From Dictyostelium discoideum (taxonomy: Eukaryota), in contig CM000151.3 in assembly GCA_000004695.1 (NCBI GenBank), positions 864,001 to 928,000 on the forward strand: a stretch of 64,000 nucleotides of DNA, in the 5' to 3' direction. This document shows positions 18,440-60,383 of this stretch, piece after piece. The notes beneath the pieces were generated by a model. The model saw only the letters and a program-made list of their open reading frames with translations. It was not told the origin of the DNA and did not search any database. The position numbers and the translations under genes were made by a program. Within the stretch, counting starts at the first letter, position 1, and the number at the start of each line of letters is the position of its first letter.

Positions 18440-20344
18440 ATGTCAATTTATCATGGTATTATAGGATCATCAGATCACATTCAAAATATTTTCCCACCAC
18501 CATCACCTAGAAAAAATATTTCATTATCAACAAATAATATATCAAGTTTAACAACACCTAAAAATTTTACAGCTATAGTAGTGACAAAACCATTGTCTCA
18601 ATCAACAACATCAACTCAGGAAATGATGAATACATCAGATGTAAGTAATAATTTATTTTTATTTTTATTTTTATAAAAAATTATTAATTAAATTTTTTTT
18701 TTTTTTTTTTTTTTTTAATTTTTGATAGATTTTATTTGACATTCAACAACCATTATCACCACAACATCATTCAAGACAAATACAACAACAACAACATGAA
18801 AAAATTACACCAGAAGAAGAAGAAAGAAGATCAGATGAATTACAAAAGATATTATTAGATACTATACCAATATTAATTAAAGGTGTTGAAACATTAGGAA
18901 TTGAAGTTGAACAAATTTGTAATGGTGATAGTGCAAATGAAAAGAGATCAAATTGTCAAGTATTGGTTGATATTCAAAAAACATTGAGAGAGTATCCACG
19001 TGGTATGGGATATCGTTCAAAGACCATTCCATCCAATATAGTGGGTAAACCAAAACTGATTGCATTTCGTCATAGTATGGACCAATTAGTTTGGGAGAAC
19101 ATTTCAAAATTATCAATTCTAAAGGATTTCGTAGAGTTTACATTAGACTTTCAAAAACTTTGTGTCATTGGTATTAGTATTCGTGATGCTATCAATTCAT
19201 TTGTAAATAATAAATGTGAATACTTGATTAAAGGTTTTGAATTTAACAATACAAATTCAATTTTATCTGGTATAAATATTCATCATCATCTTAATCACCA
19301 ACCTGGTGCATCAACACCAAGACCATCGCATTCATCCTCATCATCGTTATCACATTCATTATCATCATCACCAATGTCACAATCATTACCATCATCATTA
19401 ACATCTGGTGGTGTATCATTATTAAATACAAGTGATGATGCTATCGTACCATCACTATCATCAGGTAATGATGATAGTAGTGGTAGTAGTTTGTCATCAT
19501 CAGATGCAAATGTAATTTCAATTAATATTAGTACAGTAATTCAAAATGGTGTTAGAGATGAAATTAATAATACATCAATCTCTGCTTTAAAGAAATCACA
19601 AAAACAACAACCTGTAGTATTATCTCGTGCTCCAAAACAAGTTATGGAAAGTACTAGAATATTGGTTGATACCGTTGTCAATAGAAAATGTATGTATAGA
19701 GAAGAGAAAGCATCAATCTATAGAGAGATGATGAATGATCGTTTAACACTTTTAAAAGAAGATCCAAAGAAATTTAAACAACAACTTTTACAACAACGTC
19801 GTCAAAAATTAACAAATTCTGATCAACCTCATGAAACTGATTATAATGAGGATTTTAATTTAAACAATAATAGTACTAATAATAATAATAATATAAAAAA
19901 AGAATCAAATGGTTCATCTGTAAATAGTCAAACAACAACAACCACAACTACAACAAATAATAATAATAATAATATTTCACCACAACATTCTGGAACAAGT
20001 GGTTCACCAAGCGATAAAGAAAATTCACCAATATTTAGTCCAGGATATTTATCAACATCACCACCAAAATCACCACCAAAATCACCAGAATTTCTTGGTG
20101 TACCAATTGGTAAGAAAGCTCATTTATTAGGTCATGCACGTTCATTTAGTGCAGATACTCATGCAACTAAGGAGGCAGCAGCTAATCAACATCATCATTC
20201 TCATAATAATATTGGTTCAGTTTTATCACCTCCATTATCTTCTCAAAATGAAAGAATCTTAAGAAATTATAAACTTTTATCATCATCACCATCATCATCT
20301 AGCTCAGCAGTAGTTACCAATCCTGTATCATTAACAACCCAATT

Positions 20345-20378
<34 letters not shown>

Positions 20379-21368
20379 ACGACATCACAACCAACTCAAC
20401 CACCACCATCAGAATATCAATTATTAGATTTAGAATGGGAGGAACCAATCGATAGTGATTTTATATTACCATGTAAAGGTTATAAAATCGATAGTGGTAA
20501 TAGTAAATGTCAACAAGTTAATTATGATGAGTTAATAGTGTTATATACGGATGAGGATGAGTATCATTATTGTGATGATTTTTGTAGTTTAGAACATTTC
20601 AATTTCCTTGGAGTTAATAAAAATCAACCAGATAATCCAATGTGTATATCGGTTGTAGTTCAACATGATACCAATGAACTATTGTATATCATTAGAACCG
20701 GTGAAAAGGATGAAAAGTATAGATTATCATTACCCTATGGTAAGAAGGAAATCTCCTCAAAGGATATGTTAAAGATGATCAAGAAATCACGTTTCAATCA
20801 AATGTCAAACTTTAAATTAAAAGAGGTAAAGTCTGATCAAAATCAACAATTCATCAAACAATTGATTCAATTTGAAGCTAAAAATATTCATAAAACCTTT
20901 AAATTTGGTGTTTTATATTGTTCAGAGAATCAAGGTACCGATGAAAATGAACTCTATAGCAATAGTAGCACCAGTGATGAGTTTCAAGAGTTTTTAAGGA
21001 TTTTGGGTGATCGTGTACAATTACAAGGTTGGACAAAGTATAGAGGTGGCTTAGATATTAAAGATAATACAACTGGAACTCATAGTATCTATAAGAAATG
21101 GAGAGATTTCGAAATTATGTATCATGTTGCCCCTATGATTCCTTGTCGTGCCGCAGATGAACAATCGGTTGAAAGAAAAAGACATTTAGGTAATGATATC
21201 GTTTTAATCATCTATAAAGAAGGTAATACAAAATTATTCGATCCTTCAATCATTAAATCAAACTTTAATCATATCTTTGCTGTCGTTCAAAAAGTTGATC
21301 CAATTCCAAATGTTGATGGAGCTGCTGTTATAAATTTAGGAAATAGTTTCAATAATAATAATAGCAGC

Positions 21369-21413
<45 letters not shown>

Positions 21414-21695
21414 TCTGATTCAAACCTTCCAACTACAAATAATCTTCCAATAATTACAAATGTAAATTATAAAATTTCAATCGGTTGTAAAGAAGAAGTT
21501 CAAAATTTTGGTCCTGCTTTCCCAAAGAATCATATTTTCTCAACTTCAACTGGTGAAAATCTCACTGATTTCCTTTTAACTAGATTGATCAATGGTGAAA
21601 GAGCAACTCTAAAATCACCTGTATTTGCTCAAAAATTAAAAAGAACAAGAAAAGAATTTTTACATTCATTCATTACTGATTTTGGTAGTGAATAA
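18440..21695 (+). CDS. RapGAP-domain protein (Rap GTPase-activating protein); 2 exons.
   Basis: Exon 1 is 18440..18640 (67 aa, ends ...NTSD, GTAAGT donor at 18641). Exon 2 is 18729..21695 (acceptor ...TTTTTGATAG, same phase; the track's M at 18963 is a TTG). The C-terminal region KFGVLYCSENQGTDENELYSN...FQEFLRILGDRVQLQGWTKYRGGLDIKDNTTGTHSIYKKWRDFEIMYHVAPMIPCRAADEQSVERKRHLGNDIVLIIYKEG...FDPSIIKSNFNHIFAVVQKV is a Rap-GAP domain, including the catalytic Asn in RKRHLGND. Confidence 0.85.
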
Positions 21696-22547
21696 ATTAT
21701 TTATTAAAACTTTTTTTTTGGTTTTTTTTTTTTTTTTTTCAATCAACCAATCAAAAAAAAAAAAAAACAAATCCAAACAAAAAAAAAAAAAAAAAACCAA
21801 ATCTAAAAAAAAAAAAAAGGTTTAGAAAAAACATTAAAAAAAAATAAGTAGCGTAATTTGTAACAATATTTAGTAAAAATAAAATAAACAAAAATAAAAT
21901 AAGATAATAAATGTATCAAAAAAAAAAATAAAAAATAAAAAAAAAATAAAATATGAATATATAAACATTACTACATATCCATTAAAAATCTCAAAAAATC
22001 CAATTTTAACAATTAGTCACCAGGTATTTAAGTTAGCTCATTGAAATTATTAGAAACAATTAAACTAACTTTAATGATCAAGAATAATTCTAATCCATTT
22101 ATTCAATAAATCAACTCAATTTAGTAAACAGAAGAAAGTTTTTTATTGGTCTAAAAAAAGAAAAAAAAAATATGTAAAGGAAAAAAAATGATATTTTTTA
22201 TATTAAAAATAAACATAATTTTTTTGGAATATATTGAAAATATTTAGTTTTTATTTTATTCACTATCAAAAGTGGTGAATTGTCTTTTTTTATTTTTATT
22301 ATTTTTTAAAAAAAATGAGGTTATTTATTTTCAAATATTTAAAAAAATAAAATTAATTTTATTAACCTTTTTTTTTCTCTCTATTTTTTTTTTTTTTTTG
22401 CAAACTGATGATATTATTTCACAGTACTTACAATTGATATTTACAACTCATTATTCATTTAGCTAGATAGAATTTGTCTGGTTTCTATGATTTCTCCATC
22501 CAGGTCATTATTGATACCATCAATTATAAATTGGTAAAATTAGACTA

Positions 22548-22730
22548 CATCATTGGTACCAAATGCCATTATTTCTTTTTTTTCAATCTGCTTTACTCTC
22601 AATTTTAACCAACAACAATTATATTTTCAATGGCTAAAAACATTAAACGATGTTATAATTGTTGTTGGTTTAAAAATTGATAGTAAAGCAGATTGCAACA
22701 AAGAAATAATGGCATTTGGTACCAATGATG
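22548..22730. repeat. Near-perfect inverted repeat (hairpin): arms of ~76 bp at 22548..22623 and 22654..22730, ~90% complementary, with a 30-nt loop at 22624..22653. Each arm begins with a GGTACC site.
   Basis: The reverse complement of the right arm (ggtaccaaatgccattatttctttgttgcaatctgctttactatcaatttttaaaccaacaacaattata) aligns with the left arm (ggtaccaaatgccattatttcttttttttcaatctgctttactctcaattttaaccaacaacaattata). The flanking catcattggtacc / ggtaccaatgatg also pair. Confidence 0.8.
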
Positions 22731-23241
22731 AACAAAATTTTGATCGACAGCATTTATTGTCTCTTTGAATTTATTACTTTCAGATGGTTCATCGATTTTT
22801 GTGCTACTAAGATATCCATCAACTCTATATAAATATCTGTTTGTAATTCCATTGGTTTGAGTTGTTGTGGTTTTGGTTGTTTCTCAATTTTCGTCTCTGA
22901 TAATTTATAAAGAGTTACCTTATTTTGATTTAAATCAAAAAAGCAATTAATAAAACTTTGAATTTTCAAATCCCAAAATAACAATAAAATAAATAGATTA
23001 AATAGATTAAATAAAAAAAAAAAAAAAATAAAAAAAAATAACAAAACCTTTGTTTAATAATCTTTGTTTAATTTATTTATTTTTAGTTTTAGTTTTATTT
23101 TTATTTTTAGTTGTGTTTTTTTTTTTTTTTAAATTTTAAAAAAATTCTAAAAATGTCCAAGATCTAGATAGAACAAAATCTTGTTTTTAAGTTCCAAGAA
23201 ATAAAATAAAAATTTTGAGTTATAAAAATCTATAGATTTTA

Positions 23242-23549
23242 TTAATAATCGCCATCATAACTTCTAAAGTCCTCAACTTTATATTTCTTTTGGTAATGTT
23301 GATAATTGCTATCTCTGTTATTGGTTTTATCATTTGGATTAGATTCTTTCAAAAATATGACACTATCATCATTTTCATTATCTCTTTCTCTTCTTCTTGT
23401 TGCAATTTTATTACTATTATTTTTATTACTATTAATGACACTATCATTATTTTCGTTATCCCTCTCTCTTCTTCTCGTTATAATTTTGTTACTATTATTA
23501 ACCGCACCATCATTATTTTCGTTATCCCTTTCTCTTTTTCTTGTTATAA

Positions 23550-50485: not shown

Positions 50486-50594
<109 letters not shown>

Positions 50595-50752: not shown

Positions 50753-51603
50753 TTATGGTTGAAATAAAGGATTTTCAATTTCTTCGGGTTTATCATTATT
50801 TGAATCATTCGTATTATTATTATTATTTATATTATTTATATTATTAGCACCATTACTATTATTATTATTGTTATTATTATTATTATTATTGTTATTATTG
50901 TTATTATTATTTAAACGCAGTAATAGTTTTTTACCTTCTTTAAGATCAAATGAAAGATCTTTGGAAGACTCTAAAACAGTAGAGGGACTATCCCAAGATT
51001 GAATTGGTAATAATTGTTCATTGGTTGATTGTTTCAAGATATCATCATCGAAATGATCTACGCCATTGGTACCTAAACTACTACTATTTCCAATGCTATA
51101 GTTACTATTGACACTACCAACACTTGAACTTAAAATCTCTACATCTCCACTTATAATACTATTACCATTTGCATCGACACTACCCAAACTACTATTGGCT
51201 CCATTATTTGAGGATGGTTTTCTTCCGTGTTTCTTTGGAGAAAATTCAATCAAGGAAGCAGTCTTTTCATCGATACCTAGTTTTTGCATAATTTTAGCTT
51301 TTGATGGATCATATTCTTTTGGTTTCTTTTTTCCACTCATATAGGCATTATATTCGTCTGGATCGATTTTCAATTGTTTGGCATCGATATTCTCTAAAAA
51401 GGTAACGGCAATACCAAAAGTTGTTAAATAGTAGTATCTCTCCATTTTCAATTGGTCTTGACTACAAAACTTTGATATAAATTCGAAATTACTACACAGA
51501 TTTGGTACATTTGCATGAATTACAACATAAATTAAATGTGGTAAGAAATCATCTGCACCACCTGGACTATCAGAATTTGATAATAAAACTATTTAATTAC
51601 AAA

Positions 51604-56600: not shown

Positions 56601-57372
56601 ATGAACATACCAATAATTGAATCGCCTACAGATGAAAATAATAACAATAATATAAATAGTAAAGGAAATATATCTATAAATAATGAACAAGATATAAATA
56701 ATAATAATAATAATAATAAAAATAAAGATAATGATAGTAATAGTAATGGTGATGATAATAATAATAATAATTCCAACAACAAAATAATGGAAGCACAATC
56801 ACAACAATATGTTGATAATAATGAAATAATAAATAAAATAATAAATAAAGAAGAACCTATAGAAACAGTAACCACTACAACAACAACCACCACAACAGCA
56901 GCAGTAGCATTTAAAAATTCACAATCACCATCACAATCACCATCACAATCACCATCACAATCACCATCACAATCACCATCACAATCACCATCACAATCAC
57001 CATCACAATCGCCATCACAATCACCTCAAATAGCAGGAAGAGGTGATAGTGGTGGTGGTGGAGGTGGTACTACTACCACCAACACAGATAGCTCCATTCC
57101 AAGAATTTTAACATCAAATGATGATGGTGATGATTATGAAGATGATGAAGAGGAGGAAGAGGAGGATATTCAAGAGGATGAGCATAATCACAATGACTAT
57201 GAAGGCAATGATAATGATGGTATTAATGAAAACTATGATGAAGAATATAATGAACAAGAATATCATGACAATTATGATGATTATCAAAATAGTTCAGAGG
57301 TTTATCTTGTAAAAATGAATGAAATTGAACAACAATTAGATAGTGTTAGAAGGTATGGAGTAACTGCCATAG

Positions 57373-57424
<52 letters not shown>

Positions 57425-57445
57425 CATTGTATTTATTAATTCATA

Positions 57446-57481
<36 letters not shown>

Positions 57482-59348
57482 AGTGAATATGAGCAATTAC
57501 AAACTATTTCATCGATAATATCAGAGAAGCAACCAATGTCAAGAACTCATGTTTATGCAACAAGTGAAATAGATAGTAGTAGTCTACATGAACTAAATGA
57601 ATATGATGAATATGATATAGTGGATGAAGAATCTTATCATCGTTATGGTCATGATATTCCATATCAACAACAAAATCAAATATACCATTTACAGCGTCAA
57701 CATCAACAACATCATCAACAACAACAACAACAACAACAAAAACAACAACACCATCACCATCACCACTATAATAATCATAATCAATTAGCAAATTACAGTG
57801 AGAGTGATAACTTTGGATCAACAAGCGAAAGCCGTTATAATCATCATAATGATGCACGTTATTATCATGATGAAGATGAAGAAGATGAGGAAGAAGAAGA
57901 AGAAGAAGAAGAGGACCAAGAGGAAGAAGAAGAGGAGGAGGAAGAAGAAGAAGAGGAGGAAGAAAGAGATGAAGGATATGACGGTGATATTTCAGATCGT
58001 ATACATTGGTTACCACAAACTCAAATTAGTATTGGAAGTAGTATAAATAATAGTAGTATTACAAGCAATAATAATAGTAGTAGTGTTAAATCACCAATAT
58101 CAACCTTTAGAAAAGCAGTATTATTAAAGAAAATTGATAAGGCCTTAAATTCAATGCAAAAAACCACTGGTGGAACTAATCCTTATCCATTGGTTGGCTA
58201 TGAAAATACTGATGATGAGGATGAAGATAAAAGTTTTGCAACATGGGAGCAAAATTTACCTAACCCACCATCAAGCTATAACCAAAAACCACTTCCTGAA
58301 CAACCCCAAGCAATTAGAGCAACAACACCAAATTCAGTATCACCAACTCAAAATGTAACATCACCAACCCAAAATCCAATATCGCCACCACCAACTACTA
58401 CAACAACAACCACCACCACTACTACCACTGCCACAATAACTAATAAAAACGATGGTAACAACATCAATGAAAATAAGAGATCAACACCATCACCACTATC
58501 AATTCAACAAACACCAAAAAGAGTTACACCTAAAAAAGATAACGGAAATCATTCAGCAAAAAAAACATTAAGTTCTGGATATATTACAAATTTGGTTACA
58601 CCAAATAAAAAACAATATCAACAACAACAACAACAACAACATCACCATGGTGATAATGAGTCTTCAGGATTATCAGTTAGTAGAGAGATTGAACAGTCAA
58701 TAGAATCTTCACTTTTAATGGGACAGGCAACTCCATCAAGAATAAGATTCCAACAATATCAACAATCACCTTCATCTTTACACCACCACCACCACCATCA
58801 CAACCAACATATCCGTTATCAAGATAGTAACACTCATAATTATCACCAAACTCCTCCACCACCTCAACCATCATCTTTAGTATACCAACCAGAGACTCTA
58901 TATGATCCATACTATCAACCACAACCAACACCAACCCAAAATACACCAACACCAACTATTTTTGAAAACTTTCAACAGTATGGTTCATTCTTTCCACCTC
59001 AATCTCCATCACCAGCTACACCTTTACACAACAACAATAACAACTACAATATTAATAATAACCACAACAACAACAACAATAATAATAATCAACAGTACCA
59101 AGAGAGTCCAGAACAAAAAAGTCAAGCCATTCGATTATTGGAGAGTAAAAAACTCTTATTACAAGTTTACAAGTTTTTAGAAGATAGCACCAACATTCAA
59201 GACTTAACATTTATGAACCTAATATTTAAAGAATTGGCCAATATTAATTCATCCTCATTGTGGGAAAAATCATTCCACTCTATTAACGAATTGGTACAAA
59301 ATGACAAGATTGAAAGGATTTTACAATTGCATATTCAAAGACAACAGC

Positions 59349-60283: not shown

Positions 60284-60383
60284 NNNNNNNNNNNNNNNNN
60301 NNNNNNNNNNNNNNNNNNNNNNNNNNNNNNNNNNNNNNNNNNNNNNNNNNNNNNNNNNNNNNNNNNNNNNNNNNNNNNNNNNN
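60284..60383. other. Assembly gap: a run of 100 N.
   Basis: Direct reading. It interrupts the preceding CDS. Confidence 1.

Follow-up and report, generated by a model that had tools for sequence, protein, structure and literature searches.

A near-perfect 183-nt hairpin in an intergenic spacer of Dictyostelium discoideum very probably corresponds to the precursor of ddi-mir-7098

MicroRNA genes of Dictyostelium discoideum

Liao et al. 2018 (PMC6161686) described the primary microRNA transcripts (pri-miRNAs) of Dictyostelium discoideum as capped transcripts of RNA polymerase II (Pol II) with a G as their start site, and found this G to be preceded by up to 26 nt that are heavily enriched in T. 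In two model genes the start sites lay 116 and 281 nt upstream of miR-5p. Both 5' RACE and cap pull-down have been applied to pri-mir-1176, 1177 and 7097. Their Table S3 lists 14 intergenic pri-miRNAs. The same paper reports that every one of the 17 miRNAs of Avesson et al. 2012 (RNA 18:1771) is dramatically reduced in drnB- cells (17/17, with mir-7098 not named individually), and longer transcripts from intergenic miRNA loci build up in these cells. Some hairpins of this organism, those of mir-1180, mir-7102 and mir-1185, yield several adjacent duplexes. Read-through into the downstream gene has been reported for pri-mir-1177.

The subject of this report is a 183-nt hairpin in a 64-kb stretch of D. 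discoideum DNA, which we call the window. Its closest described relative is ddi-mir-7098, with which it shares orientation and an upstream T-rich motif ending in G, the two sets of coordinates being separated by the round offset of 864000; there is no known difference between them. The model loci mir-1176 and mir-1177 resemble it in being intergenic, in having a G after a run of T and in placing the hairpin one to three hundred nucleotides downstream of the start. Their transcripts are known to be made by Pol II, capped (m7G) and processed by DrnB, properties that are predicted for the present locus; they differ from it in sequence, to which ours has no similarity, and the present hairpin is both longer, at 183 nt, and close to perfect in its pairing. 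A second comparison is with long-hairpin MIR genes of the plant type and with young miRNAs born of inverted duplication. They too have a long, highly complementary foldback and use a single Dicer-like enzyme without Drosha (a prediction in our case), but the Rfam matches of our hairpin to plant-type genes fall far below threshold, and it has no parent gene within the 64-kb window. Finally, the multicopy thug-S miRNA loci and MITEs are small-RNA-producing hairpins or inverted repeats of the same genome, whereas the present locus is apparently single-copy, lacks a target-site duplication and has been analysed in the literature with the non-repeat intergenic loci.

The hairpin and its surroundings

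Direct reading, alignment of the arms and folding all confirm an inverted repeat of 183 nt at 22548-22730 (Table 1). It had been picked out in a first-pass annotation as a near-perfect 183-bp intergenic hairpin with 76-bp arms, and that description holds up well. In a global alignment of one arm with the reverse complement of the other, 71 of 78 columns match (~91%, where ~90% had been estimated), leaving three mismatches and two internal indel sites. Read upwards from its base, the 70-bp stem opens with a perfect 31-bp helix, after which come a 5x4 internal loop and 14 bp, then a 1x1 mismatch and 8 bp, and finally a 2-nt bulge and 17 bp. It is therefore interrupted three times, one more than the two indel/mismatch clusters that had been described. 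GC content is 27.9% (~72% AT, in keeping with the ~70% first given). The GGTACC sites that had been said to bracket the arms are in fact inside them, at 22555-22560 and 22718-22723, 7 nt from the ends. Each is the core of a 10-bp palindrome, TTGGTACCAA (a KpnI site), which occurs near the stem base at 22553-22562 and again at 22716-22725.

Table 1. Features of the hairpin locus and its neighbourhood, in window coordinates
Feature	Coordinates	Strand	Description and basis
Rap-GAP gene	18963-21695	+	One of the convergent pair flanking the spacer; ends at 21695
T-rich motif ending in G, TTTCTCTCTA(T)16G	22374..22400	+	Putative RNA polymerase II start site; direct reading and likeness to the Liao 2018 motif
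GC island, ~530 bp, without a credible ORF	22400..22930	.	Composition profile, ORF list and Pfam scan
Predicted pri-mir-7098 transcript, 424 nt	22400..22823	+	DDB0232429:886400-886823 mapped at offset 864000; poly(A) reads in Liao 2018
5' arm of hairpin	22548..22623	+	76 nt; source of any miR-5p species; alignment and fold
Terminal loop of hairpin	22624..22654	+	31 nt, self-paired in part; fold
3' arm of hairpin	22655..22730	+	76 nt; source of any miR-3p species; alignment and fold
Zinc-knuckle gene	stop codon at 23242	-	The other convergent neighbour

The stability of the fold sets it apart from everything around it. Folding 22540-22740, the check that the first-pass annotation had proposed, gave a strong hairpin with an RNA minimum free energy (MFE) of -99.7 kcal/mol, where 200 dinucleotide shuffles averaged -28.9 +/- 3.5 (z = -20); the 183-mer by itself reaches -98.6 kcal/mol, or -0.54 kcal/mol/nt. 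When every 200-nt segment of the 64-kb sequence was folded in steps of 50 nt (1277 overlapping segments), the hairpin locus was an extreme outlier at -94.7, the mean being -23.0 (sd 10.3) and the runner-up -64.1. That second most stable fold (-64 kcal/mol) comes from a repeat region at 56930-57030, yet its z against shuffles is only -4.3. The region is coding: within the ORF at 56601-57518 (+), a tandem 12-nt repeat, CACAATCACCAT, is followed by a GGT-rich stretch. Opposite strands of the hairpin fold alike (-98.6 versus -100.7 kcal/mol). Because they fold equally well, the assignment of the locus to the plus strand rests on the start-site motif and the published orientation, both described below.

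The window's other long inverted repeats consist of runs of A/T or of trinucleotides that face one another, and are not comparable structures. One of them, an apparent 107-nt inverted repeat with 83% complementarity (50486-50592 and 50790-50896), is no more than an (AAT)n tract set opposite one of (ATT/GTT)n, and the second of these tracts lies within the ORF at 50753-51451 (-). The window also contains a run of exactly 100 N at 60284-60383, presumably an assembly-gap placeholder.

The hairpin occupies a 1.5-kb spacer that separates two convergent genes, one encoding a Rap-GAP protein and the other a zinc-knuckle protein. It lies 512 bp beyond the stop codon of the latter (23242, minus strand), as the earlier figure of 500 bp downstream had indicated. 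Among the 5.8 billion sequences of the protein database that was searched, the closest relative of the Rap-GAP gene comes from Acytostelium subglobosum, at 44% identity, the source species and its close relatives being seemingly absent from that database. Exact look-ups of two neighbouring ORFs in the search collections, from which the source species likewise seems to be absent, returned no match.

Most of the spacer is extremely poor in GC (12-19%). The hairpin itself belongs to an island with sharp borders, from about 22400 to about 22930, in which GC rises to 27-31%. Such a pattern, a GC-richer stretch without a credible ORF, is what a non-coding RNA gene leaves in the composition of a genome of this kind. 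Only short ORFs overlap the hairpin (71, 44 and 32 aa); the first-pass annotation had called them junk. The 71-aa and 44-aa ORFs, together with a nearby one of 96 aa (22754-23044, -), were the three that were scanned against Pfam, and none had a match. The longest of the overlapping ORFs, at 22553-22768 (+) with a TTG start, stays open across both arms and the loop. An open frame of this kind might hint that a coding origin of the arms is conceivable.

Correspondence with ddi-mir-7098

Upstream of the hairpin lies the feature that Liao et al. described for pri-miRNA starts: an intergenic G that follows a T-rich tract. It is found at 22374-22400, where the 27-mer reads TTTCTCTCTATTTTTTTTTTTTTTTTG, a string that occurs exactly once in the window. 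Its final G, at 22400, marks the start of the GC island and is 148 nt upstream of the stem base. Motifs of this general kind, defined as a G with 12 or more T before it and with T at 22 or more of the 26 preceding positions, are frequent in this AT-rich DNA: there are 24 in the 64 kb, 13 on the plus strand and 11 on the minus. The class alone is therefore a weak predictor, and we give weight only to the exact string and to the arithmetic of its coordinates.

That arithmetic is what ties the locus to a name. [quoted passage not shown] The motif printed for it is 'TTTCTCTATTTTTTTTTTTTTTTG', at 886374-886400, and the first poly(A) read lies at distance 0 from this motif. Subtracting 22400 from 886400 leaves 864000, which is 27 x 32000, a round tiling step that would arise by chance about once in 32000. 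On this offset the window very probably covers chromosome 2 from 864001 to 928000. Orientation agrees as well: the window motif and the mir-7098 entry are both on the plus strand. Folded as a whole, the 424-nt span forms a single major stem-loop, the long hairpin (MFE -140.3, z = -14).

One discrepancy deserves comment. The motif printed for mir-7098 has 24 letters, whereas its coordinates span 27 nt; its start and end are the same as those of the 27-mer in the window. In the machine-read Table S3, all of the motifs are 1-4 letters short of the expected 27 nt, and two rows have inconsistent coordinate spans. Since every motif in the table has lost letters, we regard the mismatch between the two strings as an artefact of text extraction. 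Allowing for those dropped letters, the window carries the mir-7098 motif at the mir-7098 location, over a 27-nt span and at an offset of 864000.

Taken together, coordinates and motif make it very probable that the hairpin is the precursor stem-loop of ddi-mir-7098, a catalogued miRNA gene on chromosome 2 of D. discoideum AX4. The locus is almost certainly already in the D. discoideum miRNA catalogue and is thus not new. We also infer, from its miRBase number and from the fact that Table S3 lists previously reported loci, that mir-7098 is one of the 17 miRNAs of Avesson et al. 2012. Among the guesses first offered for this hairpin, that of a small-RNA precursor and substrate of Dicer-like processing is the one that has prospered: the locus maps onto the published pri-mir-7098 and carries the published start-site motif. 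The first-pass annotation had not recognised it as one already catalogued.

Some of the searches weigh against the identification. None of the 13-mers of the arms occurs in the supplementary files of Liao 2018, Edelbroek 2024 or Meier 2016; across full texts they matched unrelated primers only, and the name 'mir-7098' had no match in the searchable main texts. A stringent re-annotation of 2024 does not include mir-7098, and its authors state that not all earlier miRNAs were recovered; its strict criteria reject duplexes that have no unpaired bases. Three candidates that failed in the 2024 study (ddis_Cluster_1065, 1680 and 1861) were compared with our hairpin in length and in energy per nucleotide at 21-37 °C, and none matched. 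With up to 3 mismatches allowed, the window holds none of the published mature sequences of miR-1176, miR-1177, miR-7097 and D1-D4.

How does the hairpin measure up as a miRNA precursor? In the form used by Liao 2018, the miRBase criteria for high confidence call for a hairpin free energy below -0.2 kcal/mol/nt and for at least 60% of the duplex bases to be paired; the further ones concern small-RNA reads, of which there should be 10 or more per arm, 50% or more of them with a common 5' end, and an overhang of 2 nt at the 3' end. Our value is -0.54 kcal/mol/nt. In any 21-nt register of the stem, no more than 6 of the 21 bases are unpaired on either strand, so that at least 71% are paired. Rfam was less forthcoming: over the whole window no family reached its gathering score, the top sub-threshold match, to MIR4208, scoring 45.7 bits where the gathering score is 140. 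We do not take the plant MIR models as homologues, since matches so far under their gathering scores reflect shape and AT-richness, the generic properties of long AT-rich stems.

If the identification is right, the route from gene to small RNA can be sketched. Pol II would start at G 22400, immediately after the T-rich tract, and make a transcript of at least ~424 nt in which the 183-nt stem-loop would form 148 nt downstream of the start. The nuclear microprocessor, comprising the Dicer-like RNase III DrnB and the dsRNA-binding protein RbdB, would then cut the stem into duplexes of ~21 nt with 2-nt 3' overhangs, a single strand of which would be loaded into an Argonaute. Both transcription by Pol II and the m7G cap are extrapolated to this locus from the model loci mir-1176 and mir-1177. 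The predicted pri-miRNA and the zinc-knuckle gene converge (22823-23242), and it is tempting to speculate that read-through would generate an antisense RNA to that gene's 3' end.

Alternative origins and significance

The alternative that survives best is one that refines the mir-7098 annotation and does not contradict it. It holds that the hairpin is a hairpin RNA, or proto-miRNA, that arose when part of a protein-coding gene was recently duplicated in inverted orientation, and that imprecise or phased dicing yields siRNA-like species acting on the parent gene. We consider this quite unlikely, and yet several features speak for it. The stem is of great length and close to perfect, its basal helix running for 31 bp free of mismatches, and at 183 nt the hairpin exceeds the spans of 105-153 nt given for miRNA hairpins in the available part of Table S1 of Liao 2018. 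The GC content of the island is exon-like, and one frame, of 71 aa, is open through the entire hairpin. There are precedents in D. discoideum, where other hairpins give two adjacent duplexes and mir-1184 lies in a pseudogene exon. The locus is also missing from the 2024 set, under criteria strict enough to reject duplexes without unpaired bases.

Against all this stands the lack of a parent sequence: nothing in the 64-kb window resembles either the arms or their flanks, and the ORFs that were scanned (71, 44 and 96 aa) have no Pfam match. A blastn search of the island against the window for a local parent or target returned only low-complexity chance matches. Arm 21-mers, allowed up to 4 mismatches, matched the window 167 times compared with 94 for shuffled queries, all of these matches involving runs of T or A. 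A more specific version of the idea is that the gene is a non-canonical miRNA, a young hairpin-RNA gene formed by inverted duplication, whose perfect basal helix of 31 bp would, like the helices above it, be diced by DrnB to give two or three 21-nt duplexes in phase; these would silence the parent gene in trans. We put this forward as a speculation, with roughly one chance in its favour for many against.

Returning to the precursor of ddi-mir-7098 as our preferred reading, two further proposals made for this hairpin in the first-pass annotation have not fared well. The first is a recombinogenic palindrome, which we weigh here as a functionless local DNA palindrome, perhaps capable of forming a cruciform, that would have come about by an accident of replication or recombination and would yield no small RNAs. 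Its fold as single-stranded DNA is indeed strong (-70.2 kcal/mol, z = -17), and nothing else speaks for a recombinogenic palindrome beyond cruciform extrusion being possible in principle. An inert palindrome is very hard to reconcile with a position inside a transcribed unit that is covered by poly(A) reads, has a defined start motif and already figures among the catalogued miRNA loci, and the GC island points instead to a constrained RNA gene. We therefore hold it to be highly improbable.

The second, that the hairpin is a MITE or another non-autonomous DNA transposon with the arms as its terminal inverted repeats, we find scarcely credible, even though the element is small, AT-rich, non-coding and made up wholly of inverted repeat, and even though repeat-borne miRNA loci exist in the thug-S family of D. 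discoideum: the sequences that adjoin it (...TTAGACTA before the hairpin and AACAAAAT... after it) hold neither a target-site duplication of at least 4 bp, at the ends or up to 3 nt away, nor a TA/TA pair, so that the duplication sought at 22548/22730 comes down to chance matches of 2-3 nt; the arm has no second copy in the 64 kb, where it is found only as the hairpin's own two arms; a 28-mer from it had no match in a metagenome collection; and Liao et al. 2018 (PMC6161686) had explicitly set aside the multicopy thug-S loci by the time they drew up Table S3, in which mir-7098 still appears, grouped with the non-repeat intergenic miRNAs. The flanks within the 424-nt transcript, moreover, are as GC-rich as the hairpin itself, which makes it look unlike an insertion into an AT-rich spacer.

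What, then, does the locus tell us? Because it is almost certainly in the D. discoideum miRNA catalogue already, it adds nothing new by itself. If a young origin by inverted duplication were true, it would explain the unusual length and near-perfection of the stem, its exon-like composition and its absence from the stringent 2024 set. On the reading we prefer, as the precursor of ddi-mir-7098, a raw reading of the sequence alone was enough to pick out a genuine miRNA gene. A GC island, a T-rich start motif that ends in G and an exceptional hairpin would together make up a recognisable signature of a miRNA gene in an AT-rich amoebozoan genome.
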